A stretch of 64,000 nucleotides of DNA from an uncultured Nitrososphaerales archaeon (GTDB lineage: Archaea; Thermoproteota; Nitrososphaeria; Nitrososphaerales; Nitrososphaeraceae): the NCBI GenBank assembly GCA_963709405.1, contig CAVPXM010000042.1, positions 1 through 64,000 on the forward strand, given 5' to 3'. The notes beneath the pieces were generated by a model, which worked only from the letters and a program-made list of their open reading frames with translations, was not told the origin of the DNA and ran no database searches. Shown one piece after another: positions 5,629 through 55,214 of the stretch (position 1 is its first letter; every line of letters begins with the position of its first letter). Both the position numbers and the translations under genes were made by a program.

Positions 5629-7180
5629 TGTCATTACCAATATAGCACGAGGAATAAACGATACACGTAAGCTAAATGCCGATAAATTTCAGTTCGTTTA
5701 TGCGATTCTGCAAGTATTAGCCTTAAGAAGCATAGACAGGAAGGAACAAGTTACATACGAGTCTAGAAACATGCTTTCACAAGAAGACAGAAATGCATTA
5801 GATTGGTTGAGTAAATACCTAGAACATAAACCAGGTGGAGCTGATTTTGAACGATGAATACTCGGTCAAACTCGCATTAATAGAAGAATATAAAAAAGTT
5901 CTGAAATATAAAAAATCTATGAGGATTTGGTAGAATCTTTCCAATATATGATAGCGGATTTGTTTCAGTATGCAGATAAACAAAAAATTGACCTTCCGAA
6001 TAGAGATAGAATATATAGAAATATCGAAAGGGCTAGAGATCTAATACAGTATCGAATAAACAGTATGGAATCCGACGAAAATTTACATTCATAGAAATCC
6101 GACGGAGACTTGACAGAACCCAAAATGGTTTATCATAATAGATTCATAATTTTTTGTAGAATCCTAATTCCTTCTACAAATCCTATTAGAGGCAGAAACA
6201 ATACATAGAGCGGCCAAAGGAGACCTAATTTGTAAGTTTGTAGTCAAAGAAAGAAAAGAAGGTTATTTGTAATAAGAAAAAGTAAAAATGGAGCCTCAGT
6301 TTCCACATAATCCAAATGGCCTAGTAACAGTCCCTAAAGGTGAGGCTGAATCAGCTAGAAACATAAGCGCACTTGATCCAATCAACAATACAACTATAGG
6401 ACAAGAAAACAGTAACCAAAGCCATAAACAAAATGATCAAGCTCGAAGTTTCATTACAAGAGTTGAAGTGGATCTATCTCGGTCTAGGTTGGTATGATAC
6501 GGAGGGAAGGAGATTTGATGATCCGGATAGAGAGGAATTTGAAAGATTTACTGATAAAATAAAAAACTTGCTTTTAGAGGAGAAGAAGAAGAAATGAAGT
6601 GTGCTCAGAAAGATTGCAAAAACAAAGCAGAGCTAACAATTATCTCTAGTGATATCACAAGCGATTCCAATAACACGCTGATCATTAAACTCCTTCTTAT
6701 ATATTTAATTGGCCTATAAACTAATATAAATCCAGTCAGACGGAAGATATACTCAAATTATTATTGGAGCTCTTCTGCTATACTAGTCAAATTGTTAGAG
6801 TATGGTCGCAGACAAAATTGATGGATAAAGCATTTAAAATATGTCCATTGAGGCCTCTTCTAGAGGCATTGTCTGGTCGTTGGCAGATGAACTCATCCAA
6901 ATTAGTTCAACCCTCAACTGATGCTACCTTGATATCTGAAAGGGATTGAATTAGTATATACAAGATCTACTAATTAACAAGCAGAAAAGTTTCACAACCT
7001 TTATTCAAATCTGTGCTATTTTTATATAGACATCATATTTGCAATACCACATTGGCTGCTCTATGGAGTTATTAAGCCATGACAATGTCCGTGATGGTGA
7101 GAGACAGATGGATGCTTGTGCCGGTGCTGAATCTGATAGTATTCCGACAGCTGCTACTATTGTTACTATGATAACAATCT

Positions 7181-7318
7181 AGTTTGTAGCTTAATTCCGA
7201 AATAACGTTATTCAAGGATTATTTCGAACATCATAATGAACAATATGTTCGTATTATTCGTTGACACTCTATACTAATTCGTGATTCGAAAACTGTATTC
7301 GAAATTACGCTACAAACT
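7181..7318. mobile_element. MITE-like element, 138 bp
   Basis: Ends AGTTTGTAGCTTAATTCCGAA and TTCGAAATTACGCTACAAACT are inverted repeats with 2 mismatches; no ORF and no clear TSD. Confidence 0.6.
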
Positions 7319-7380
7319 CGTGTAAAAAATAAAATAAAAAAATTGAATAGCGATCTTGTCTTCGTTTTGTTTTGTTTTTG

Positions 7381-8052
7381 TTATCGTTTTAGTAATTCCT
7401 TACCATTCTGATCTATTATAGATTCTACTGTGCCAAATACTGGCAAGCCCTTGAAGTGATCATCAGTTTTTGTTCCCTCGATGTTGAAGTTGGCTACATT
7501 CCCGTTCAGCAAATGAACAACTATTGGGACATCTTTCCACTTTACTTTTCCATTAGTGGTTATATCAGCGATTCCTTTAAAGTCGGTATGATTACCGTTT
7601 GTTAGTGCTATTTGTTCACTGTGACCAGGCAATACCGCACCAGTTGCATTCCTCAAGATTTCGATTGTATGATGGTGGGCTCCTTTACCATCAATCTTTG
7701 ACATCGCAATATCAACAGCTAGGTTGGTTAAATTTCCTTTACTTACACCCAACTCCCAATCTCCCCCTAGAACCCATATTTCTGATGTGTTGCTAGAAGG
7801 TCGTCCTGCTAATGTATCAGAGGCCAAACTAGATATCTGACCTTTTGCTCTAAAGGTATCAACATTTGTGGTATTGGTAGTGGTAGTAGTATTACCTCCT
7901 TGAGTCTGTGCTAATGCTAGACTGTTACCGTTGAATATTGATGTCACTGCAGTTACGCTCATTAAGGATATGGCTATGATGGCAGTAGATAAAATCGCTA
8001 TTTTAGTCCTACTCATGTCTGGAGATATGATAGAAGATCCAGTTGTCATCAA
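7381..8052 (-). CDS. Secreted hypothetical protein
   Basis: Hydrophobic N-terminus, ALA cleavage-like site, Thr-rich linker; 223 aa. Confidence 0.75.
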   Translation of the reverse strand: MMTTGSSIISPDMSRTKIAILSTAIIAISLMSVTAVTSIFNGNSLALAQTQGGNTTTTTNTTNVDTFRAKGQISSLASDTLAGRPSSNTSEIWVLGGDWELGVSKGNLTNLAVDIAMSKIDGKGAHHHTIEILRNATGAVLPGHSEQIALTNGNHTDFKGIADITTNGKVKWKDVPIVVHLLNGNVANFNIEGTKTDDHFKGLPVFGTVESIIDQNGKELLKR

Positions 8053-8685
8053 ATGATCAATACTACTAATAAACTATAAGAATATTCATTCATTCATTCA
8101 ATAAGATAGGACATATCTCTACTAATTATGAACAAATTGACCTGAAGAATTCCTGCCATTTCAGTTTGAGAATTACTCTTACTAATCATCTCTGACACTT
8201 TGGTTCTTCTCAACTCTACTTGAGTTTTGGGCTCATTTATTGCACTTATTCACGCTCATTTGGTATCGACTTCAGAACACTTGTTTAGTTATACTAAATA
8301 GGACCTGGACAAAATCAATCTACTCGAAAATCTATGTAAAATAGTATAAGCGTCTACACTGATGTTATAGACGCGAAGCAGAAAACTTCCTACGTTCATA
8401 GTAGACGAGAAGATGAATATCATAAATTAAACAAGAAAGGAGAACTACAATCCATATTCATGAACTAGATGTGCTTGCATCACTAGATAAACTTCAGACT
8501 AAAAAATACCGACAAATACGATAAGAATACAAGATAGATAGTTACAAGGCTACTTTTGGAGATCTCATCCTCATTTTCCAAGAAAGTTACGTGAAACAAA
8601 CTAAAAACAAACTAAAAACAAATTAGGATTCCACTCCAAAACATATGGTCTTACGGCATCAGTATGCTGTGGTGTTATCAAGATG

Positions 8686-9201
8686 TTATGGCAGAACTTC
8701 TAAGTGGCCTATCATGCTGGGTAGATCATATCTACAATAGTATGTAAAACCACCTACTGTATCAGCCTTGAAACTAAATGTTGCATTCTGCCCACCTGCT
8801 AGATCATGATCCATCTTGTAAGGTGATTGCATACTGAATGTGTGTCTGTCGGTAGCTTCATCTGCAGTATTGTAGAAATGAATTGTAACGTTATCTCCCT
8901 TATGCACTATAATATTTGTCAGTGTGAATACTGCAACTGGCACGCCAAGTTTAGATTCGTCAGCGTTCAGTTCTTGGGTAAAAATGTAATATTCATTTGG
9001 CTTTAGCCCTGGTGCACTAACCTCCTTAACTGATGGCTGGGCTGCAGCAATCTTCATCACCCCAACCGGCATCAACAGTGTCAGACCTAAACTTAGTGTC
9101 AGTGCGGCCACAAGTATAAGTGCAACTGGCATCGTTAGAATCCTCTCCATCCCCATAACACATGCGAAACAAATGTATCTATTAAGCATATCTATGCTCA
9201 T
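8686..9201 (-). CDS. Secreted cupredoxin-domain protein
   Basis: Signal peptide; VHKGDNVTIHFYN, HTF and GGFTYYCRYDLPSMIGHLEV. Confidence 0.85.
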   Translation of the reverse strand: MSIDMLNRYICFACVMGMERILTMPVALILVAALTLSLGLTLLMPVGVMKIAAAQPSVKEVSAPGLKPNEYYIFTQELNADESKLGVPVAVFTLTNIIVHKGDNVTIHFYNTADEATDRHTFSMQSPYKMDHDLAGGQNATFSFKADTVGGFTYYCRYDLPSMIGHLEVLP

Positions 9202-9897
9202 TGAACTCTAGATATTGCAAAGCGTATTCCGTTTAGGAGTATGATCCACGGCTGAATGGAAATTGAATCTTCCTCATCCATATAGGCAACTCTGATTTCG
9301 TTGCATTTTTGCACCACCAAGACTTCGGGGATAACGGTAGTGTTTCATTTCTTATCGAGATTATTCCCATATTGAGAAGGACGTGCCTGTTTTTCTATAC
9401 TGTCCCTCTTTTAGGCTCAGGGCATACCGCAACCACATCCTCATTCCTATCTTATTATGATATGGCAGGGTTTATGCGTTATGATAATATCAAATCTGAT
9501 TTTTTTCAGTTACAGGCTATATTATATGAGTTTTTACAATAGATAAATAAGTTGCAGATAAATAGCTAGCCATTATTCCTGTTTATACTGTTCTTCCAAA
9601 TTTGATGTATATAGAAATTATTTCATTTAACAACATAACCTGAATGGTGAGTGATAAAATATCGAGTCGATACTTTTATATCAGATGAAAAAGATTACGA
9701 GAAAAACAATGAACAAATCAAAAACAATGTCAATTGTTGCAATAACCCAGACAATAATAATAACAAAGCCAACAATTAGTAAAAGTCGAGACATATGATA
9801 GAGTATTGTCTATACTCCTAACTCTTTTTTATTTTCTTCAAACTCGTTCTATGGCTGAGTTGTTAAATGGTCTTGTTTAGCAGAAATAGACTTCCGT

Positions 9898-10140
9898 TCA
9901 TGCTGCATAGATAATAATATTTTTAGCTTTTTCTATTTCCTTTCCTGCCTTTAAGTTTGCTTTGTATTTCAAGTTCCGTGGCCTTGTTCTTAATCTACAA
10001 CCACAACAAGGACAGAATATTCCTTCCCATTTTATAAAAAGCTCGCATACTTGACATCGTTTTTGTCCGGTAGCATATCTGCTTATAGCAGGCGGAGGTT
10101 TTTGTGCTCTATGTTTTATACATATGCCTTTACAGGTCAT
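9898..10140 (-). CDS. Conserved thaumarchaeal Zn-finger protein
   Basis: MTCKGIC...RY..GQKRCQVC...CPCCG.RLRT. Confidence 0.8.
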   Translation of the reverse strand: MTCKGICIKHRAQKPPPAISRYATGQKRCQVCELFIKWEGIFCPCCGCRLRTRPRNLKYKANLKAGKEIEKAKNIIIYAA

Positions 10141-10741
10141 TTTGTTATTATTCCTTCCTCAGGTAGTATATGGTGTTGATATTATACTTTTAAAGGCAAT
10201 CATAATTTCTGCTTTAATTTTTAATTTTCGGAATTTTATTGGAATTATGACGTTTATTTGTAACTTCTATGTTACGATTTTCTTCAATTCTCTCCACTAA
10301 AGCCTTTAGGGCCTTCAGACCCTTCAGTATTATCTTTTATCGGAAGTTTTAGTTGAACGTTAGATTCCAGATCATCGCGTGTTCGATGATGTCCTAATCC
10401 ATTCATATAGGAAGTAGGCACAGTAATGGAATAGAATGCAAAGAATGAGTTTATAAGGAAGAATTATTTTATCAAGGCCAAGTCAGATTCCAAAAAAGAA
10501 CAATGTGTTCCCAGTTACGTATTTACTGGCTCCGAGTTCTCCTCCTCTGCAAACAACATTAGAATTACAGTAAACGATGTATCAATCAAAGATTTGAGTG
10601 TAAGTTTGATAGAGCCACCACAATAATTCATCAATGACACAGCCTTCATTGATGTGGAAAGAGAAATGTATTGGATAGGCCACTCATATTTTTATAATAT
10701 CTACAGATTATATCCAATGCGAAGCCCTAGACACAATTAGA

Positions 10742-11200
10742 ATGGCAACTGGAGTGATATATACCCCATTGCATTTATCAAAAGTTCTTGTTGTCTTTTT
10801 GATAATTATTTCAATGCTTCCTACTGGAACTTTTATTTATGGACATCTATATGGTAATGGGATACAGCAATGGATAAACAAAGAGGAGGGCATTAAGATT
10901 CAATTCAAATATGCACTTTATAAGCCTGAAATTAACAATTATCATCAACTCAATTTCAGTATACAAGATTTAGAAACTGGAAAACATCTAAGAAATCTTA
11001 CTGCATATGTTACTATTACAAATGATCCCTTATTCGCCTTTGATAATATAACAATTCCTAACGGTGACTTCATGGTTGTCTGTCCCTTCTTAGATCAAGG
11101 TCAACGCCAAGTAATTGTTAGTTTACGGTCTAGAAATTACGCATTAGCATTAGCATCATTTAATATGACAATTCCACAATCAAACTCAGCAAGTAGTTAG
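10742..11200 (+). CDS. Secreted or membrane-anchored hypothetical protein
   Basis: N-terminal hydrophobic helix, beta-rich remainder. Confidence 0.6.
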   Translation: MATGVIYTPLHLSKVLVVFLIIISMLPTGTFIYGHLYGNGIQQWINKEEGIKIQFKYALYKPEINNYHQLNFSIQDLETGKHLRNLTAYVTITNDPLFAFDNITIPNGDFMVVCPFLDQGQRQVIVSLRSRNYALALASFNMTIPQSNSASS

Positions 11201-29070: not shown

Positions 29071-30070
29071 TGCTTTGTTGCGCGATTCATTATGTTGTAA
29101 GTGATATTTATTTGACCACTCTGCATTTAGCTACCCAATAATAATTATTCTGGCATGATTGACTGGCCTTCGTATAATCATTCATTAGTAAGACGTGGCC
29201 AAGTACCTCTTAGATTTTGATGTACTTGATGGATGGGATCATGAATTATCTCAAATGAATCTTGGTAAGGTTGGTGAACCTTACGACTATCCAGATTCCT
29301 TTATTAAGATCCTAGGTTACATGAGAGCTTATTTTCATCTACCATATAGACAGACAGAGGGCGTAGTTATAGCACATGCAAGTACAAAGGTTCCAGGTAT
29401 ACCACATTATAGTACTATTAGTAGACGCATAAACAGGCTAGAGATCAAAATCAATGAAAAATTAGGAAATGATATTGTCATTGCTATAGACAGTACCGGT
29501 ATTAAAGTAGCTAATCGAGGTGAATGGATGCGGCATAAATGGCATGTTAGGAAAGGATATCTAAAGATACATGTAGCAGTTGACATCAAGAAGAAAAGAA
29601 TCCTGTCTTTGGAGGTAACTAGTGAAGAGGTACATGATGGTAGGATGCTAAGCAAGCTAGTAGACAATGCTTCTGAGAATAATCATGTGAAGGGCATGTT
29701 AGCAGATGGTATGTACGACAGCAATAACAATTTTAGATACCTGTCAAAGAACCATATTAAACCAGGTATAAAGACAAGAAGTAATTCCAAGGTAAGGTCA
29801 ACTAACTGTCATGCTAGGAATATGTCTGTAGTAAAACAACAAGCAAATCTCAAAAGATGGAAGCGTAGCGTGAGCTATGGACACAGGTGGATGGCAGAAA
29901 CAGCATTCTCTTCAATTAAAAGAATGTTTGGTGAACATGTAACAGCTAGAAAATTTCCTAATATGGTAAAGGAAATCTTCCTAAAGGCAACTCTGTATAA
30001 CATGTTCAATCGAATGACCTAACTAACGGCTTGCATAACCTAAAATCCTAATGAATCATGCAACAGAGCA
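29071..30070 (+). mobile_element. IS5-family insertion sequence, 1000 bp
   Basis: 21-bp TIRs TGCTTTGTTGCGCGATTCATT / TGCTCTGTTGCATGATTCATT; TSD CCAGAATG at 29063-29070 and 30071-30078. Confidence 0.95.
29155..30022 (+). CDS. IS5-family DDE transposase (apparent +1 shift near 29205)
   Basis: MIDWPSYNHSLVRRGQ start; IDSTG, ADGMYD and RWMAETAFS. Confidence 0.9.
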
Positions 30071-31915
30071 CCAGAATGAATAAATTTGACTGGTATTACC
30101 ATATTGATCTTTACCAAATTTATAACAAACCGTTGGTAAAGACCATGATCTATCAGAATAAGTATAGAGACCTTAAACTTGATACAGTATCAAATGCTAT
30201 TCTTGATGAAGGCAAATTTGAACAGTTAGACGGGTTACAGATTCAAAACCTTCCAATGGAAAAACAAATAGAATATGTAGCTCAAGATGCCAACCTCGTA
30301 ATGAAATTATCTAAACATAATAATTATGAAATACTGGACTTGATGAATGCAATTTCTATTATAACAAATGTTCCTTTTGATAGAGTATGTCATACAGGCA
30401 TATCTACATGGTGGAACAAGATTATCGCCAACAAGTTACTTAATGGCGAATGCAAATTACCTTCCTTCAGGAATGAGTTGAAGAACAAAAAACAGAAATA
30501 CATAGGCGGTGAAGTAATCCCTCCTATAATAGGAGATTATAAAGATCAAAAAATCTATGTGTTAGATGTCAAGTCACTCTATCCCACTATAATGATAAAT
30601 AACAACATCAGTTTTGAGACCGTCAACTGTGACTGTTGTATGGACAAGCCAGAGGCAAGAGTTTCATCCGAGATTATGGATATAATAAACAAAGATTTGC
30701 CACTGGGCCAAAAAAGACAGAATATATATTGGATCTGTAAAAATCAGAATTACGTGGGAATTATTCCACGTCTTTTATCTCACTATCGAACTGAAAGATT
30801 CAGACAACAAGAGTTAGGAAATAATTCAATGCAGTTAGCACTCAAAAATCTTATTAACGGCATTTATGGCTTATTCGGTAGCGAGTTCTTTGATTTTTCA
30901 GATTATAGAGTCGCTGAACTTACAACGGCTTTTGGAAGACAAACTTTGAAATATATGCAGCATATAGCAGAAAAAGTATACGGTTTTAAAGTAATTTACG
31001 GCGATACAGATAGTATTTTTGTAACGGACGTCAAGAAAGAAAATGACATTAACAAATTCTTGGCAGAGTGCTCCATAGTATTAGAAGATATTGAAATTGA
31101 ATTGGCAAATGTCTATAACAGAATCTTAATCATAAAGAAGAAACATTACCTAGGAGTTACAAAGGAAGGAGAAATCATAGTTAAAGGAATGGAGGGTGCA
31201 AAAATGATCGTCCTTCATGGATTAATAGCGTGTTTAATCAGTTTGTAAAGGAGATTGTCGCAAATGATGTAAATGTATTAGCAAACATAAGAAATTCAGT
31301 TAAGGAATTTGAAGAAGGTAAAGTAGATGCAAATGAATTGAAGATATCTGTCAAACTTTCAAAGGATCCAGATCACTACACAGTGAATAATGCACAAAAG
31401 AAAATAGGTCTTGAGCTCAATCTTAAGGCAGGAGATGTTATTCAGTATTACAAGTCGGATAATGACGATGGAATCTCATTAGATCCAAATGATATCAGCA
31501 TTCAGAAATACAAAGCAATGTTATGGAATTCAGTTAAGGATATTCTAGAACTAACTGGCCACGATATTATCACAATAGAACAAGATTTGATACTAAACAA
31601 GTCAAACAATACAACCCAAAATCCATCAAATATCCAATTTCTGAGGTAAATCCCATTTAGTAAACTTAATATGATCTAAACCAGCCATGCGGCGGGTTCC
31701 GAAACTTCCCATTTTAAACAGAATAAAGTTGCGGTACTTTGATACATCAAAGATATTTTGGGACATAGAATATTAGAAATGTAGACCTGTTTGTAACTCT
31801 AAGAAAGTGTATGTAAAACTGTTTGTATCTATTATTCCACTTGTACTTAAAATCTTTTAGTCGTTACTATTAAACAGTAACGCTTTTATATGACCATTGT
31901 TTATAGTATTCATAC

Positions 31916-34108: not shown

Positions 34109-34438
34109 ATGCAAAGAATTCGCCAAGTTGTCCATAATTTATTGGACAATGCATTAAAATTTACAAAACATGGCTCTATTACAATATCTTTATCAGAAAG
34201 AAAGACAAGAACTGCAAATGAATGGAATATCGTTATAAAAGACGACGGCGAAGGTATTGATTCAGAGATAATGCCGAGGCTATTTACGAAATTTGCGACT
34301 AAATCAGAACATGGGATAGGGTTGGGCCTGTATATCTCAAAAAGTATTATTGAAGCTCATGGTGGTAGAATATGGGGCGAAAATAATGCTGATGGGAAAG
34401 GCGCTACTTTCAGTTTTAGCTTGCCAATGGCTAACTAA
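34109..34438 (+). pseudogene. Histidine kinase HATPase_c fragment
   Basis: NLLDNALKF, DDGEG, GIGLGL and GATF boxes; no H-box. Confidence 0.85.
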
Positions 34439-40114: not shown

Positions 40115-41458
40115 TCAATTTAGGATCTCTGGAGGATCTACCACTTTTCCATATTTCCAACTTATTAGACGTGCTAGTTGCCTTGTTGGACTCTTATATC
40201 CATTCCTGGAATCAGTAGGTGAAAAAATCCAACCATTCAGCATCATGTCAAAGCCACCAAGAATGATGAGTTTTTCTTTGGACCTGGAAATAGCAACATT
40301 GACGTCCTGCAATGTTCCTGCTGCGCCGACATTATTTTCAGCATTATTTCTTACCAGCGAAAAAATGACAACGTCAGCTTGGGTTCCTAATGCGCCTGTG
40401 GTTGTAGTGACTTTTATACTATCCCCAATTCCCATACTTTGTAAATAGCTTCTTATCAGCTGCTTCTGAGCAGTATATCTAGTGATAATAACAATAGACT
40501 TTTGAGGAGCAATATATCTAAGTTGATGACAAATTCTCGCGCATGCTTTGGCTTCAGTTTCATTAGCCCAAGAAGATGGACCTATGGGTTCCTCGATACC
40601 CTTGCTTATGTCGACCCAGGTCGTAACTTCAGAAGGCTGGATTATATCTCTGTATTCTATGTCTGGTTGTATCTCCACAATCAGCCTTCTTGAAGCGACT
40701 TCAGGAGCAGACCTTAATCCACCATATTTTGCAAAGTCGTTAACTAATCCTGAGAGTTGATCGGGCAAACGATGAGACAGTCGCAGCGTATCTGAACGAG
40801 TTCTCTTTATTATCCAGTCAATTGCACTATAATCACGACGGTCAGGGCTAATAGGTCTTGATTGCTTTGGATCGCCAATTACCGTGGCAACAGTGCCACT
40901 CTTCACTATTAGATCCAAAAGATCGTTGATTTGATCAGACTGATTATTGCTTCCTCCGCTATCGTTACGCCACCTATAACTGGCCATTGGATCAACACCG
41001 AGTGAAAATGGCCATAAAATATGCTCTATTCTGTTGATACCAGCTTCGTCTACAATTATATTATCAAATCGCATGTTCCTTGTCAATATTTTAAGGGATA
41101 ATGTAGTGCAAATGATAATCTTCTTATCCAAGATATCATTGATATGTCTTTTAAATGGTATGTAATCATTCAGGATTGGGTCTATACCTGTGGGATTACC
41201 TGTCCTTACACAGAACTTTTGTGCAGTATTACCAAGTATATTGTGGAGCTCCCAACCAAACTCATTAGCTGCAGCATTAGTATATGCTACTAGCAAAACT
41301 CGCGTAGCAAGACCTTCTGCAATTAGCTTCACAGCTAAGCTACTTCCTACTGTTGTCTTTCCACAACCAGGAGGCCCAACTACTGCTGCAATATCCTTGC
41401 TAGTTGCACGCCAGTTTAAAATTCTAAGCTGTTCACTGTCAAGAAAGAGGTTATGCAT
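40115..41458 (-). CDS. SF1B (Upf1/Dna2-like) helicase
   Basis: EQ, GPPGCGKT, TNAAAN, DEAG, GDPKQ, NETEA, RYTAQ and NVAISRSK. Confidence 0.9.
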   Translation of the reverse strand: MHNLFLDSEQLRILNWRATSKDIAAVVGPPGCGKTTVGSSLAVKLIAEGLATRVLLVAYTNAAANEFGWELHNILGNTAQKFCVRTGNPTGIDPILNDYIPFKRHINDILDKKIIICTTLSLKILTRNMRFDNIIVDEAGINRIEHILWPFSLGVDPMASYRWRNDSGGSNNQSDQINDLLDLIVKSGTVATVIGDPKQSRPISPDRRDYSAIDWIIKRTRSDTLRLSHRLPDQLSGLVNDFAKYGGLRSAPEVASRRLIVEIQPDIEYRDIIQPSEVTTWVDISKGIEEPIGPSSWANETEAKACARICHQLRYIAPQKSIVIITRYTAQKQLIRSYLQSMGIGDSIKVTTTTGALGTQADVVIFSLVRNNAENNVGAAGTLQDVNVAISRSKEKLIILGGFDMMLNGWIFSPTDSRNGYKSPTRQLARLISWKYGKVVDPPEILN

Positions 41459-42920
41459 GTCCTATAAATTCGCCATAGTTTTCATCATGTAGAAGGAGAT
41501 CAGCTGCTAATCTGTGAAACCTGTGCATTGGTTCAAGAACTCGTCTAGTAAGGTTTATTTCATCTGGGACTATTACTATTGGAAGATCCAGTAAATGTAT
41601 CTTGGCACGGTCGACTGCTATAGTTGTAGGTAAATCGATTATAACCTCCTTGCCATTTACCTGTTTTATCATACCTCTTTCGCTTATACATGCCAAGATC
41701 GGAATATCGTTTACGTGATTTTTCTGCTCTTTTCCTATTATTCTTATGACCTTGCGTGGTTCTAAAAACGTCCTGATATTCTCTCTAGTAAGAGTGACTG
41801 ACCTGCCTTCAGTAGATCTTAGTTTATAGCCAGAGTGGATTATGCCTGCTCTTTCCAGTTCCTCCAAACCAGCTGCTTCACCAAGGTTTTCAGTAGCAGT
41901 ATAAAGTACGAATTTATGTCTATGTGTTTCACCTCGCTCTTTTAGGACCAAATACCGTCTTTTTATTAGTAACCTTCTGATTTTATCATAATTATCCGGA
42001 AATACTCCCTGACGGGCTAACCTTGTATCTTCTCTGTAAAATCGACAATCTGGAGCTGATTCTCCATCTCTATCACAAACAGGACATACAACAGGCTTTT
42101 GAGCATATGGTGTTCCTCCACATAGTACTTGGTGTGCAAACTCTCTGTCAATTTTGACTTTATTGATAATACGTTCAGAGATAGGTAATCTGGGTATATA
42201 TGCACCCTCATTATACACTACAGCCCCAAAACGGCATTTACTCCAATTATTTTCGTCTCTGGTATATCGGTAATTTGTTAGAAACAAATTTGCAATGATT
42301 TGCCATGCATCTTTTCTACCACCTGTAGTTACGCTGTTAACTTCGTTTGATTTCCAATCAATAATACCATAACAATCATCATCGTATTCTAATATAGCAT
42401 CAATTCTTCCTTCTTGCACATTCCTTATATTGGTAATTGTTATTTCTGTTATTGCCCTTACTGGTTGAGGATGCTTTTTCATTACCCGTTTTGCCAATCC
42501 AATTAAGAGGCCATGAAATCTGTCTTGAACTTCATTTTCGAAAGTATCTAAAACACTACTATCTCTTCCATCTCTTTTTGCCACCTCTTTGGCGTTTGCT
42601 ACTGTTTTTTCTATTATATTTGCTGAATCTTTAATTATTGATTCTGCTACTGTCCCAAAATCCTTAACTCCGTATTGCCAGTTATCAAGAATTGTTGTTG
42701 GGGTTGCAAGACTCATGATGTCATGAACAGTATTTGCAATCAGGTAATCACGTTCTCCACCGACTACTCCAAAAGGGTAACTTAGTTTAAATAAGAAAGG
42801 ACATACACAGGCTGTGGCTATCTCAGTAGACTGCACAACGTGTGTCGACTCATTAGACATCTTCTTGTAAAGTTCTCTTATGTATAGCTTATTCGTATTA
42901 GCCAATTGTATGAATTCCAT
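41451..42920 (-). CDS. Cas4/AddB/Dna2-like PD-(D/E)xK nuclease with predicted Fe-S staple and C-terminal beta domain
   Basis: STEIATACVCP, TVH, E...GRIDA...IIDWKS, CPVC-x8-C; 8-bp overlap with the helicase. Confidence 0.78.
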   Translation of the reverse strand: MEFIQLANTNKLYIRELYKKMSNESTHVVQSTEIATACVCPFLFKLSYPFGVVGGERDYLIANTVHDIMSLATPTTILDNWQYGVKDFGTVAESIIKDSANIIEKTVANAKEVAKRDGRDSSVLDTFENEVQDRFHGLLIGLAKRVMKKHPQPVRAITEITITNIRNVQEGRIDAILEYDDDCYGIIDWKSNEVNSVTTGGRKDAWQIIANLFLTNYRYTRDENNWSKCRFGAVVYNEGAYIPRLPISERIINKVKIDREFAHQVLCGGTPYAQKPVVCPVCDRDGESAPDCRFYREDTRLARQGVFPDNYDKIRRLLIKRRYLVLKERGETHRHKFVLYTATENLGEAAGLEELERAGIIHSGYKLRSTEGRSVTLTRENIRTFLEPRKVIRIIGKEQKNHVNDIPILACISERGMIKQVNGKEVIIDLPTTIAVDRAKIHLLDLPIVIVPDEINLTRRVLEPMHRFHRLAADLLLHDENYGEFIGHA

Positions 42921-42969
42921 ACACGATCATTTGTTACAGAGATGGTGTCTAACATTTCTTTTGATAGAC

Positions 42970-43227
42970 TTAAAACATGCTTTCATCTTTTATCGAACCG
43001 TCCATAGTAACTAGCATAATACGTTCACTAATCATAAAGCCACAATTTTCACATCTAAATCGGATTTTATCATTCCATTCATCGTAGTATATAGTGAGAT
43101 AGTCAGAGCAATCTGGACAGACAAGATCCAGGAATTCATGTGTTGATTTAGTCGTAGGAAAATCCGCTACTGAAAGTCTAATACCCTCCATTCTGTTTTC
43201 ATTTTCGTTTGTTAATTCACAGTGCAA
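42970..43227 (-). CDS. Zinc-ribbon protein
   Basis: CPDC...CENC. Confidence 0.6.
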   Translation of the reverse strand: MHCELTNENENRMEGIRLSVADFPTTKSTHEFLDLVCPDCSDYLTIYYDEWNDKIRFRCENCGFMISERIMLVTMDGSIKDESMF

Positions 43228-43244
43228 AGCTAACTTAGTGTTGT

Positions 43245-44093
43245 ATGGATAGCAAGGTATATAACCATAATCACCTTACTAATATTACTAAAGTGACTAA
43301 TGTGAGTCATATGACAAATACATCTTCCAGCCTGATAGATATGCTTCGTGTGCACATAGCAGCTGTAGGTTTTGAGGTTGATCGCATAGTCCTTCCAGCA
43401 ATTAAGAATAAAGCTGATCGAGTATGGCTTCTGACCCATAGCGGTCTGGATAAAGATAAGGGTGATGTTTTTGTGAACTTGATTAAGGAGAAATTCAGGA
43501 GTGCAGGCATAGATTGCCAACAATCTACTGCAGACAGAACAGATCTATTTGATATATTAAGAGCATTAAGATCGATTATCCTAAAAGAAAAGGGGAATTC
43601 TATCCTGGTTAATGTATCTGTTGGAAGCAAAATTCAAGCAATAGCTTCAATGATGGCCTGTATGATGTTTAAAGACCAAGTAATGATAAAGCCATATTAT
43701 GTGGTTCCTGAAAAATATAATACTTCATCTACACAAGAAAAGAGACAAGAAACCGAAGGGATGAAAGATAACATCCTTCTTCCAGAATACAAAATAGAAA
43801 TTCCTAACGAGAAACTGATAAGGTGTTTGGACATAATAAACCGACAAAGAGACAATAAGATTAGTAAACGTGAGTTGAAGGATTTAGCGTTGGGAAATAA
43901 TCTTATTCATATTTCCAACAAGCAAGATACGGGAGATTATACCGATCAGGCCGCATATATGGCACTGAATAAGAATCTCATAGATCCATTGCTTGAATGG
44001 AAGTTCATAACTGTGAACAAGCAAGGTGCGCATCATATAGTAAGTGTGACTGATGAGGGTAGAAATGCACTAAAATTTCTCAATGTTGATTAG
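43245..44093 (+). CDS. DUF6293 (HFX_2341/Csa3-like) CARF-type domain plus winged HTH regulator
   Basis: RVHIAAVGFEVDRI, NVSVGSK, PYYVVP and a C-terminal wHTH ending VTDEG; true start may be 43311 or 43341. Confidence 0.8.
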   Translation: MDSKVYNHNHLTNITKVTNVSHMTNTSSSLIDMLRVHIAAVGFEVDRIVLPAIKNKADRVWLLTHSGLDKDKGDVFVNLIKEKFRSAGIDCQQSTADRTDLFDILRALRSIILKEKGNSILVNVSVGSKIQAIASMMACMMFKDQVMIKPYYVVPEKYNTSSTQEKRQETEGMKDNILLPEYKIEIPNEKLIRCLDIINRQRDNKISKRELKDLALGNNLIHISNKQDTGDYTDQAAYMALNKNLIDPLLEWKFITVNKQGAHHIVSVTDEGRNALKFLNVD

Positions 44094-44168: not shown

Positions 44169-45250
44169 TCAACAATTTAAATCCCTTCCGACTCTTTTAG
44201 TTAAATCTTTAAATCCCAATATTTGAAGATGTGAAGATGTCAAATTTGCTCTAGCTTTTTCACATGTAACTTGATCAATATCTATGCCTATTCCTTTTCT
44301 TCCTGAACCACAGTTTAATGTCGCTTTAATGTTAGTGCCAGCTCCCATCATCAAGTCCAATACTACATCGCCAGTATCTGGAAATGTTAATCTTGAAATG
44401 ATTTCTTCTGCTTCCTTTGTGCTTTGTTGCCATTCTATGAAGATCTTTTTCTGGTCTTTGTGATGGAATAAGGTTTTGTAATAGACCATTTGTTATTAAC
44501 TCAGGGCCTTTGTAATACCACAGTAAATCTTTTTTCTTCCTTGAAATATGTAGATGCTGATCATGGCTGAAAGGCCCTTGAAGTTGTATCGATATATCTG
44601 TGTTATATATCAGACCTTCAGCTTCTAAAATATTCATAAATCTACGTTTCATGGTGTCTCCGAATAATGAAACTAAATGACCATTAGGTTTTAGCTTGGC
44701 CATTACTATTGGTGGCAGGGCTTCGTAAAGATACCAGTATTTTTCTTCATAAGGTGGATCGAGAAGTATCAGGGATACAGAATTGTCAGGTATTTTGGCA
44801 AGTATTGCAGGATCTCGGAAGTCACCACAGTAAATCGTAGCTTGATCAGGTAACAGGTATTTGGAATTTATAAATTTGGCCTGCTGAATCAATCGTCTCT
44901 GTTTTTCTGCTGCTTTTAGCTGTGCAGCCACCTTATTTGCTGTTACTTTTCCATTTCTTAGATCTTGTATTTGTTTCTCATTTGCATTATTTTTTACAAA
45001 TTCCCATGTTGATATTGTAGTATGTGAAACAGTCCATCATTTTACCTAGTAGTTCATTCACCCTATTACTGGCCTGGTTATGGTTATTCTTCTCTAATGC
45101 TAGATTATAGTCGTTATTAGCGATTTTGTTAGTATTAATTGGTGTAAAAACTTTCAGGTAGTCCTGCTGTATGGTAATACCTGGCGTTGATTCCTTCAAA
45201 GATGGTTTGAATTGCATCTGTAACAAGCTTATCGAATCCTTTAGGATCAA
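44169..45250 (-). pseudogene. Phage-type DNA methyltransferase (beta class) with N-terminal HTH, two frameshifts
   Basis: VSHTTIS, YCGDF, LDPPY and VLDLMMGAGT...GIDID. Confidence 0.8.
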
Positions 45251-45750
45251 TATTTTGGCAGCTGCTCCAGTTCACTCCTTAGTGACGACGTGAGATCTGC
45301 CGTATTAATTACAAATACGGGTGGCTTAGCAGGGTTCCACGTATTTATCCGATAAAGCACAAACTCTGCTCGTTCATGATATTTCTGATGGGTTTCTAGT
45401 GCATCCCAGTCAATCTTAATCTCAAACCGAAGTTCATTTAATAATCTATTCCAGTCGATTTCAGTCTTAGACGAAAGTTGGTATACTAATTCATCTTTTA
45501 ATGCGGCTTTACTTCTTAGGTTGTCATTACCGTTACTGATGTAGATACCGCTTAGTTTTGCTGCCGTTATAGATCCACCCCCAGCGAATAACCATCGCTC
45601 CATTTCCTTGGCACTGCCGGAATGGACATGGTAGATCGTGCTCGCCATTTTCTTAAGCGCACAGTTTGGTTGATCTTCGCTACCAATGTCGGTATCGTCG
45701 GTGGTTTCGCCTCCAATAGAGCCGGCTTTAGTTTCTCTTTTAGTGTTCAT
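45247..45750 (-). CDS. Hypothetical protein
   Basis: 167-aa ORF tightly packed between AbrB and the MTase. Confidence 0.6.
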   Translation of the reverse strand: MNTKRETKAGSIGGETTDDTDIGSEDQPNCALKKMASTIYHVHSGSAKEMERWLFAGGGSITAAKLSGIYISNGNDNLRSKAALKDELVYQLSSKTEIDWNRLLNELRFEIKIDWDALETHQKYHERAEFVLYRINTWNPAKPPVFVINTADLTSSLRSELEQLPKY

Positions 45751-45752
45751 TT

Positions 45753-45986
45753 TTATTGGGCCTTTTCGATAATAATTTTTCCACTTTCTTGCGTAACTCT
45801 GACGTAATCACCTTTACCGAGGCCAAGGTTTTGTGCATACATTTTTGGTAGACACACCGAAAAACTTAGATCCCCAATGATGCTCCTATATTCTGCTTTT
45901 ATACCATCCTCAGCTTTCTTTGTTTCTAACATTATACTAGTAATCGAGGGAAATGTATATACCGTCCAACATCCGACCATACTCAT
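45753..45986 (-). CDS. AbrB/MazE/SpoVT-family DNA-binding protein (start likely ~45932)
   Basis: SFSVCLPK.YAQNLGLGKGDYVRV....GKIIIEK. Confidence 0.85.
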   Translation of the reverse strand: MSMVGCWTVYTFPSITSIMLETKKAEDGIKAEYRSIIGDLSFSVCLPKMYAQNLGLGKGDYVRVTQESGKIIIEKAQ

Positions 45987-54399: not shown

Positions 54400-55214
54400 G
54401 TCAATAAGAGAATAGTCAACCGATACCTTCATTTTATTAAAAGGTATCATTTTATGCTACCTATTTTAGTATGTAGGGAAACGAATGTATCCCTTTTATG
54501 AGACTTTATGATACCATTTTGTGGAATATTCAAGATTTTAAGTAGATTTATCAAGGAAAACGCACTAGAAACAAAATAACATATAGATGTTGAGATCCAA
54601 CAAAATGCTAAACTCATACCTAGGTTGTACTCATAAGAGATTATGAGCCTGCTCGATCTATCAAAACTAACATACTATTGATACAACAAAGAATGTTTAA
54701 GCACGATAATGAAGAGCAATTACATCTAAAATATTCAGACATTTACTTGACCACGAACATATAAAACATAACCAATTCTAAATTCCTATCCACTGTTACA
54801 GCGAAATTTAGATAGAACATATAACAATATAGTAAAGAATAGGTTTCTAGCAGCTGTGCTTCAGGTATGTCTCCTATCTGATGAAAACCAATCAGCAAAT
54901 AAACTTTCAAATTCTGGAAATTTTGTTAGTTACCATATGTGAGATATAACAGTTAGTAAAGTTAGTAAGTTCGTTTTCTTCGCCTCCACAAGATTTTTGC
55001 CATTTTTAATAGTCTTACACTTGTCCGTAGACGTTAATTCAATTTCTCGTGTCCATTCCATTTGCTCTTGAATTGTAATATTATCAAGCTGCTGAAAAAG
55101 ATGGTGGTAATACTCATAGTAATCTCTTTCTTGATCATCATATGAGTAGTCTTTTTTATAACCGTTGTGCATGTGCATGCATCGTTAATAGAGCCTTCTA
55201 AGCTTAATGCATTA

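Follow-up and report, generated by a model that had tools for sequence, protein, structure and literature searches.

We analysed a 64,000-nucleotide stretch of DNA (hereafter the window) from an uncultured Nitrososphaerales archaeon of the family Nitrososphaeraceae (assembly GCA_963709405.1, contig CAVPXM010000042.1, positions 1 to 64,000 of the forward strand). A reading made earlier from the letters alone (the sequence-only reading) had proposed a split Dna2-like nuclease-helicase operon under a divergent CARF-like DUF6293 regulator. The four open reading frames (ORFs) of this module proved to be real and uninterrupted in an ORF check, and the locus comprises the following genes and features:

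40115–41458, minus strand: helicase ORF, 447 amino acids (aa), intact
41451–42920, minus strand: nuclease ORF, 489 aa, intact
42970–43227, minus strand: Zn-ribbon ORF, 85 aa, first gene of the minus-strand operon
43245–44093, plus strand: DUF6293 regulator ORF, 282 aa, divergent from the minus-strand operon
43258–43264, no strand assigned: TATATAA element inside GGTATATAACC, between the divergent genes, proposed as a shared TATA box
43276–43300, plus strand: three TTACTAA-like heptamers in direct repeat with 9-bp spacing, candidate operator of the winged helix-turn-helix (wHTH) regulator

As had been noted, the stop of the nuclease gene and the start of the helicase gene overlap by 8 bp (41451–41458; ATGCATAA on the minus strand). 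The NCBIfam profiles added nothing specific for the ORFs of the module.

The nuclease carries the motifs that had been read from its translation, namely C38-V-C40-P, G171-R-I-D174, I-I-D188-W-K190 and C279-P-V-C282, while the spacing given for the last cysteine had to be corrected: nine residues, not eight, separate C282 from C292. In an alignment of 46 sequences of the nuclease family, E159, G171, D174, E178, K190, C279, C282 and C292 were invariant, position 188 was D or E in every sequence, and C40, H66 and Q207 were nearly invariant. Judged by these residues, the protein is of the Cas4/AddB/Dna2 pattern, with a PD-(D/E)xK site framed by four cysteines that are predicted to hold an Fe-S cluster. 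The match to the Pfam family PDDEXK_1 (18.1 bits) lay below the cut-off of 22, and a PDB sequence search with the nuclease profile returned weak PD-(D/E)xK matches only (E 0.19 or worse). The Dna2 family PF08696 was absent among the Pfam matches of the nuclease and gave no match in the whole genome; the control, Haloferax volcanii, did give a match. The Dna2 Pfam domain was carried by proteins that a language model placed close to the nuclease although they lie outside its family; we take these as leads only.

The AlphaFold model of the nuclease (predicted local distance difference test score, pLDDT, 90; predicted template modelling score, pTM, 0.90) shows the first three of the segments below, and the fourth is its counterpart in the helicase:

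Nuclease residues ~20–300: Cas4/AddB/Dna2-type PD-(D/E)xK nuclease domain with a four-Cys cluster, from model and alignment
Nuclease residues 309–332 and 458–476: two-helix stalk, from the model
Nuclease residues 362–452: beta barrel, from the model
Helicase residues ~143–187: helical insert after motif II, modelled docking surface for the nuclease stalk

Before residue 155 the nuclease consists of helices only, with no beta strand (DSSP of the model; no separate domain search). A Foldseek search with this model yielded three significant PDB matches, all of them to mouse Dna2 (E 4.4e-10 to 5.6e-9; best 5ean_A). With VIA-align, residues 1–475 of the model were superposed on residues 23–586 of Dna2 (Z 16.6, root-mean-square deviation 4.5, 398 residues aligned), and the nuclease part alone matched AdnAB (Z 12.4) and Cas4 (Z 11.0). 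The C-terminal stalk/barrel part (residues ~310–472) matched the stalk and barrel of IGHMBP2 (residues 3–159, Z 10.8) and the barrel of Upf1 (Z 8.2), and it also matched Sen1 and SETX.

The helicase matched the Pfam families AAA_12 (1.1e-28) and AAA_11 (4.7e-13) above cut-off, and the superfamily 1 (SF1) motif residues K34, D137/E138, Q199, R230, G358, R370 and R392 were invariant in an alignment of 26 helicase sequences. By its predicted domain content it is a complete minimal motor of the Upf1/Dna2-like SF1B branch, with RecA domains 1A and 2A. Among all PDB sequences, the helicase profile scored best with mouse DNA2 (3.1e-35) and less well with NAM7/Upf1 (3.4e-30). In PADLOC, helicase residues 246–413 aligned with positions 912–1082 of the 1112-position MkoA model, that is, with its C-terminal part (8.2e-39), and matches to GajB were weak (best 4.1e-6) and limited to the Walker A region. 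Dna2 itself is described as running from the nuclease through a beta barrel on a stalk of two long helices to helicase domains 1A and 2A, with a barrel-stalk-helicase part strikingly similar to the Upf1 subfamily (PMC4716839). The two halves thus point to Dna2 independently of each other, and the gene boundary falls just after the stalk/barrel.

This split between nuclease and helicase is conserved, in two families. The helicase lay directly downstream on the same strand in 26 of the 29 related nuclease loci, and the remaining 3 stop at a contig edge; the helicase was reduced to an N-terminal fragment in one locus (L002) and another was full of stops (L013). We recovered 189 word-index matches for the nuclease family, all of them of about 400–607 aa and, where labelled, from Nitrososphaeraceae, and the helicase family was likewise stand-alone (~433–482 aa). 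We searched for fused homologues with an all-length phmmer run over 1.84 billion representatives, which gave 114 matches, none longer than 487 aa, and with a word-index profile search of proteins of 1064–3035 aa, which gave none; the word index covered 268–856 aa and 1064–3035 aa, and the range of 857–1063 aa was covered by phmmer alone. An indel artefact, which would have undone the sequence-only reading, is thereby excluded as the source of the split. The 29-locus counts, like the distribution of the nuclease given below, include two genomes flagged as unpublished, G076 (L012, L055) and G035 (L025); their removal lowers the respective counts by one and leaves the conclusions unchanged.

Complex models of the nuclease/helicase pair reached values of 0.83, 0.82 and 0.83 for the interaction prediction score from aligned errors (ipSAE), against 0.00 for the best of three controls, a mark that 116 of 157 solved complexes attained, as did 2 of 215 mismatched pairs. 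The runs had at least 92% of their contacts in common, with a partner pLDDT of at least 86, and the modelled interface placed the nuclease stalk helices (residues 310–331 and 457–476) on the motor insert (residues 143–187). The structure of Dna2 is solved, however, so the pass may stem from likeness and not from binding. Taken with the matches to the Dna2 fold, the DNA2 sequence match and the conserved split, the complex model lends good support to the two-subunit Dna2-like enzyme that had been predicted for the locus.

We found a second split pair in the same genome, on another contig (L033, G000:C36:38000-54000; 7115–10849), in which the nuclease has 513 aa, the helicase 435 aa and the divergent DUF6293 protein 259 aa. 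The regulators of the two modules were 56% identical and the helicases 25%; the nucleases did not recognise each other in BLASTP, and their homology emerged in a profile comparison, across 370 columns that take in the barrel (hhalign probability 94.5%, E 7.5e-8). The genome has just two AAA_12 helicases and two strong HFX_2341_N genes, and all four belong to the two split modules. This second nuclease family (nuc2; the family of the window is nuc1) was present in 17 of 101 sampled family genomes, always with a helicase where the available DNA allows one to be seen. In nuc2 the expected (D/E)-x-K is replaced by Q-I-K, with Q201 and K203 invariant in 10 sequences, so its catalysis might be altered.

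The regulator matched the Pfam families HFX_2341_N (119.5 bits, cut-off 30; 1.5e-34) and DUF6293_C (67 bits, cut-off 27; 2.2e-18), as well as CARF_Card1 (6.4e-7), and in PADLOC it matched CARF3--CARF over its full length (5.9e-67). The motifs NVS-GSK and H-x-x-PVGF, a CARF signature, were invariant in its family, and a PDB sequence search with the regulator profile gave weak CARF matches only (E 0.1). One member of the family has been characterised: HFX_2341 of Haloferax mediterranei is described as repressing many genes, cas genes among them, and as being kept in CRISPR-free species (PMC11434293).

The neighbourhood survey showed that the linkage claimed for DUF6293 is real and that it is not obligatory. 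Viewed from the regulator, 25 of 36 close relatives (at least 54% identity; species-level genome collection) were divergent to a nuclease of either family, and among the 11 regulator loci without a nuclease partner four have less than 700 bp of sequence upstream and two hold only a fragment of the regulator. Viewed from the nuclease, a regulator was present in 9 of 29 loci, all in the clade of 54–63% identity. A maximum-likelihood tree of 32 regulators had nuc1 and nuc2 partners interleaved, and its well-supported branches force at least 3 changes for each label; 10 of 42 labelled rows were dropped from this tree (anchor motif unmatched or product short), including those with NurA-HerA, HNH and TIR neighbours. 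Because the partners interleave, regulator and module have been joined anew or exchanged several times over, which speaks for function and not for inheritance alone.

The Zn-ribbon protein has four cysteines and a match to the TFIIB ribbon of Pfam below cut-off (20.9 bits against 29). Its relatives sit between regulator and nuclease in many loci, not in all, and were also found beside regulator relatives with other cargo (L123, L150, L152 and L162); the gene is an optional companion of the regulator.

The gap between the divergent genes had been described as very short, and it does measure 17 bp between the longest ORFs. It is probably wider, since the annotated 5' end of the regulator ORF, where the protein is not conserved, contains the TATA element and the repeats; the true start is probably GTG 43293 or ATG 43311. 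The centre of the TATA element is 34 nt from the TTG of the Zn-ribbon gene and 32 nt from GTG 43293. In our proposal, this single palindromic TATA element would serve leaderless transcripts in both directions. A wHTH protein bound to the repeats would cover the start site of its own gene and abut the upstream side of the opposite promoter. A pair of the heptamers was found in 18 of 28 regulator-upstream regions, always 17–20 nt past a TATA-like element and with both nuclease families, whereas elsewhere in these loci the background is 0.005 per 130 nt; these 18 regions are related loci and not 18 independent events. Degenerate versions were visible by eye in the ten regions missed by the repeat scan. 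In a soil metatranscriptome run (X20) we found four short contigs, three of them 95–99% alike and one 90–95%; three map to the regulator gene and the fourth maps to the nuclease gene, and one begins at 43312, next to ATG 43311. These contigs are a hint only, because they show no strand or ends, may stem from DNA in the library and come from a relative. A second close match to the TTACTAA repeat, TTACTAACTTTACTAA, lies on the minus strand at 54953–54968, between the phosphoglycerate kinase and pyruvate kinase genes.

The nuclease (nuc1) was present in 37 of the 101 sampled family genomes, in 20 of the 70 high-quality ones and in 12 of 18 genera, and several copies were fragmented or interrupted by stops. 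A search of 401 genomes of the phylum with the nuclease profile returned the window itself and 4 weak matches only; the two of these that were inspected are UvrD-type helicase-nuclease fusions, an architecture of another kind. No relative of the nuclease or of the regulator was found in a viral contig collection by pattern scans and tblastn. None of the 9 window neighbours, Usp paralogues excepted, recurred beside the module in 34 loci, and the genome has a NurA-HerA pair elsewhere (L183, G000:C21:30000-42000). Given the patchy distribution, the decayed copies, the lack of flank synteny and the NurA-HerA pair already present elsewhere, the module is accessory and frequently lost, and is not an essential replication gene. 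Next to that NurA-HerA pair and an MCM gene, we also observed a TiaS-like (agmatidine synthase) gene that seems to be broken up into two ORFs, of 228 and 250 aa, which overlap and share the FLD domain (L183, 2851–4207).

Outside the module, the neighbours are broken, as had been reported: a methyltransferase is spread over two frames, and fragments of a family-B DNA polymerase (PolB) and of a histidine kinase lie further left. The N6_N4 DNA methyltransferase occupies two overlapping frames at 44169–44931 (S-adenosylmethionine-binding part 44169–44489, DPPY part 44332–44931); by its frames it looks like a frameshifted pseudogene and is perhaps a restriction-modification remnant. To the left, a DDE transposase of insertion sequence (IS) type (29195–30022) is followed by the PolB fragment (396 aa, 30058–31248), and an isolated histidine-kinase ATPase fragment lies at 34109–34438; together they point to a decayed mobile or variable region on that side. 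A small AbrB/MazE-like ORF (45753–45986, below the Pfam cut-off) stands directly upstream of an unannotated 167-aa ORF (45247–45750), and the two may form a toxin-antitoxin-like pair. No tRNA gene was found in the window, and no integrase, tRNA or direct-repeat border was found adjoining the module, around which repeats were not searched.

More distant relatives of the regulator were found divergent to varied other genes. In one locus (L123, 1507–6768) the regulator relative is divergent to an operon of Zn-ribbon, NurA, HerA and calcineurin-like phosphoesterase genes, and in another (L150, 1910–6735) to PIN and Zn-ribbon genes and a 1120-aa UvrD-PD-(D/E)xK fusion. PIN genes also stood beside regulator relatives in L137, L143, L152 and L162, and HNH genes in L134, L140 and L141. 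Two Methanoregula genomes have a regulator relative divergent to a ThsB-type TIR gene and 8xMP membrane genes (L138, 2659–5515; L145, 3041–6756), with Cas4-like, radical SAM or kinase-HD genes further on, and a Halobacteriales genome has a STAND-kinase-TPR protein beside its regulator relative (L174). The regulator relatives of Thermoplasmata had no consistent neighbour. The cargo of the family can thus be read either way, as defence effectors or as DNA-end-processing machines.

From the computed folds, motif conservation, conserved split, linkage and cis-acting repeats we infer a complex, a threading path and polarity, operator binding, a ligand and a role, as follows. The overlapping genes would encode the two subunits of one Dna2-like enzyme, one contributing the nuclease, stalk and barrel and the other a 5'-3' SF1B motor. 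In the model, the nuclease stalk helices would dock on the helical insert of the motor and so restore the arrangement of Dna2, and by analogy with that enzyme free-ended single-stranded DNA (ssDNA) would thread past the nuclease site, pulled by the motor. In the clade of the window, transcription of the module would be set by the divergent CARF-wHTH protein, which would bind the TTACTAA repeats adjoining the TATA box common to both units and either repress or activate the nuclease operon. As its role we prefer an innate, defence-like one: the module would degrade foreign or replicating DNA where this exposes single-stranded ends. A split Dna2-like module beside a sensor-type regulator suggests a switchable machine that destroys or repairs DNA ends. 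As a whole, the statement of a two-subunit Dna2-like enzyme under CARF-wHTH control, acting in a defence-like way on DNA with ssDNA ends, is put forward tentatively, at somewhat less than even confidence.

Several observations weigh against this proposal. No known defence family matched the nuclease in PADLOC, and the MkoA and GajB matches of the helicase are partial. In eight other genomes the module is flanked by ordinary metabolic genes and not by recognisable defence islands, and in one locus (L126) RadA follows the helicase. The cargoes linked to the regulator (Dna2-like, NurA-HerA-phosphoesterase, UvrD-nuclease) are also classic end-resection repair machines. A whole nuclease clade of 42–46% identity (L017–L030) has no regulator within the 1.5-kb flank, although in L020, L029 and L030 the upstream DNA is short or the contig ends, and in two loci of this clade another small winged-helix gene takes the regulator's place; CARF control is therefore dispensable. 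The loci compared are kin, so the motif and linkage counts overstate independence. Finally, the nucleotide signal that the sequence-only reading had proposed as inducer is unsupported: neither Cas10 (TIGR02577, PF22335) nor Cas1 (PF01867) was found in the 91%-complete genome, in which CD-NTases, mCpol and diadenylate cyclases were not searched.

The alternative that fares best keeps the same two-subunit Dna2-like enzyme and gives it a damage-inducible role in repair or recombination, in end resection or flap processing, with the CARF-wHTH protein as a stress-responsive regulator in organisms without SOS. We consider this possible and less probable than a defence-like role. The nearest relative by both structure and sequence is a repair and replication enzyme, and Csa3-family factors are described as regulators of CRISPR and DNA repair genes (PMC8844856); the RadA gene of L126 and the ordinary flanks elsewhere agree with it, as do the resection-type operons divergent to regulator relatives in L123 and L150. 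A repair function fits less well with the patchy distribution and frequent pseudogenes of the module, with two divergent nuclease families in one genome, with the repeated swapping of cargo under one regulator lineage, with the PIN, HNH or TIR neighbours of other regulator relatives, or with the NurA-HerA pair that the genome already has. It is the patchiness, the decay of copies, the swapping of cargo and the PIN/HNH/TIR company that lead us to favour defence-like degradation of DNA over damage-inducible repair.

A wider generalisation of the defence-like or repair-like circuit can be drawn, which we regard as rather doubtful speculation. The CARF-wHTH gene, often with its Zn-ribbon companion, would be a portable sensor-regulator cassette that switches interchangeable DNA-end-degrading effectors in CRISPR-poor soil and marine Nitrososphaeria, namely two split Dna2-like families, NurA-HerA-phosphoesterase, UvrD-nuclease, PIN and HNH; it would form a hitherto unrecognised inducible innate immunity (or SOS-like) circuit of archaea, driven by a nucleotide whose synthase has not yet been found.

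It is unlikely that the adjacency of the regulator has no regulatory meaning for the nuclease operon, the protein controlling only itself, with the repeats as autoregulatory sites, or acting as a global regulator in the manner of HFX_2341. The repeats do follow the TATA box in the direction of the regulator and cover its expected transcription start, and HFX_2341 is described as affecting many unrelated genes (PMC11434293); the relatives in Thermoplasmata and the nuclease clade without a regulator fit such independence too. Yet when this TATA element is read the other way, towards the nuclease operon, the repeats border its upstream side. A split pair stands divergent to 25 of 36 close regulator relatives and to both paralogues in the genome, and the arrangement was kept while the partners swapped between two nuclease families.

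Many archaeal viruses and plasmids encode a Cas4-like nuclease and an SF1 helicase, and the module could have been the replication or recombination genes of an integrated mobile element or provirus, which we judge improbable. The debris nearby (the IS-type DDE transposase, the PolB fragment, the broken methyltransferase and the AbrB/MazE-like gene) is consistent with such an origin, the position of the module differs between genomes, and Cas4 genes are described as often recruited by mobile elements (PMC5704561). Against it stand the viral contig collection, with no relative of nuclease or regulator in pattern scans and tblastn, and the module borders, with no adjoining integrase, tRNA or direct repeat (no search aimed at repeats was made), in a window without tRNA genes; moreover, just three or four genes travel together, and their flanks elsewhere are chromosomal metabolic genes. 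Action of the pair on RNA, in the way of Upf1-, Sen1- or Mokosh-type helicases, is very improbable: the helicase is of Upf1-like type, a branch that works on RNA as well as on DNA, its strongest PADLOC match is the C-terminal helicase part of MkoA, and the helicase contacts of Dna2 would accommodate RNA (PMC4716839), but its profile ranks DNA2 above NAM7/Upf1 and its partner is a Cas4/AddB/Dna2-type Fe-S nuclease, of a family whose members are described as DNA nucleases (PMC5704561).

Defence-like degradation of exposed DNA ends thus remains our preferred, tentative role for the module. Should it restrict viruses or plasmids, the list of known systems would gain an archaeal nuclease-helicase; should it repair, end resection in archaea would have a dedicated regulator of ligand type, which is rare. 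One CARF-wHTH lineage paired with varied DNA-end machines, with no type III CRISPR signal source found, points to an unrecognised regulatory input to CARF domains beyond CRISPR. The defence and repair repertoires of soil ammonia-oxidising archaea have been charted only poorly, and these abundant organisms are difficult to cultivate. The layout of Dna2 is itself already known, and what we report is an undescribed, patchily distributed module of these archaea: no description of it was found in the literature on DUF6293/HFX_2341, CARF3, archaeal Dna2-like proteins and Thaumarchaeota defence, with the neighbourhood supplements of the CARF classification (PMC7498327) outside this coverage.

In PADLOC, the pair matched no already named system, as had been anticipated, with partial MkoA and GajB matches of the helicase and nothing for the nuclease. 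Known systems were rejected one by one. CRISPR-associated Cas4 does not fit, as no Cas1 (PF01867) was found in the 91%-complete genome and the nuclease lies among genes for a helicase, a Zn-ribbon protein and a regulator. Mokosh does not fit either, as the match covers only helicase residues 246–413 and the C-terminal part of the MkoA model and the partner is a PD-(D/E)xK protein that is not of the phospholipase D (PLD) family and has no PADLOC match. For Gabija, the GajB matches are weak and limited to Walker A, and no GajA-like (OLD-family) gene is present; nor is the module Hachiman. AddAB/AdnAB and the UvrD-Cas4-like proteins resemble the pair in combining an Fe-S Cas4/AddB-type nuclease with an SF1 motor on DNA ends, and give the second-best structural matches of the nuclease domain (Z 11–12), but their motor is of the SF1A UvrD type, fused N-terminal to the nuclease, which is C-terminal, whereas the motor of the window is SF1B (AAA_11/AAA_12), comes after a stalk and barrel and is encoded by a separate downstream gene.

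Nhi is a single bacterial protein, unlike the pair of the window. What the two have in common is the union of nuclease and helicase. For Nhi, a defence protein of Staphylococcus, activation by the phage single-stranded DNA-binding protein (SSB) and a phage DNA degradation model are described (PMC10732053). No PADLOC model named Nhi matched the nuclease or the helicase, the presence of such a model in the library being unchecked. The available text of a Cas4 phylogenomic study (PMC5704561) links Cas4-like proteins to UvrD and COG1205 helicases and names no link to an Upf1-like motor. Like Csa3 and HFX_2341, the regulator has a CARF Rossmann domain at its N-terminus, which bears the NVS-GSK motif, and a winged helix at its C-terminus; it differs from them in having no CRISPR-Cas link (Cas1 and Cas10 were not found in the genome) and in being partnered with a split Dna2-like operon.

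The fused archaeal Dna2-like proteins are single long chains that PF08696 detects, such as a 1442-aa frame in a Halobacteriales genome and the match in Haloferax volcanii, whereas the Nitrososphaeraceae families are always encoded by two genes, for proteins of about 440–560 and 435–465 aa, and are not detectable with PF08696. With eukaryotic Dna2 (mouse, PDB 5EAN/5EAX/5EAW) the window enzyme shares the four-Cys PD-(D/E)xK nuclease, the stalk and barrel, the SF1B domains 1A and 2A and the order of these modules. In contrast to the eukaryotic enzyme, it is predicted to consist of two polypeptides, split after the stalk/barrel; its nuclease has no PF08696 match and no evident N-terminal oligonucleotide/oligosaccharide-binding (OB) fold in the model; and its genes form an accessory, patchy module with a CARF-wHTH neighbour. 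The module is in this sense a natural dissection of Dna2, with nuclease, stalk and barrel in one protein and the motor in the other, and could help to separate the contribution of each half biochemically.

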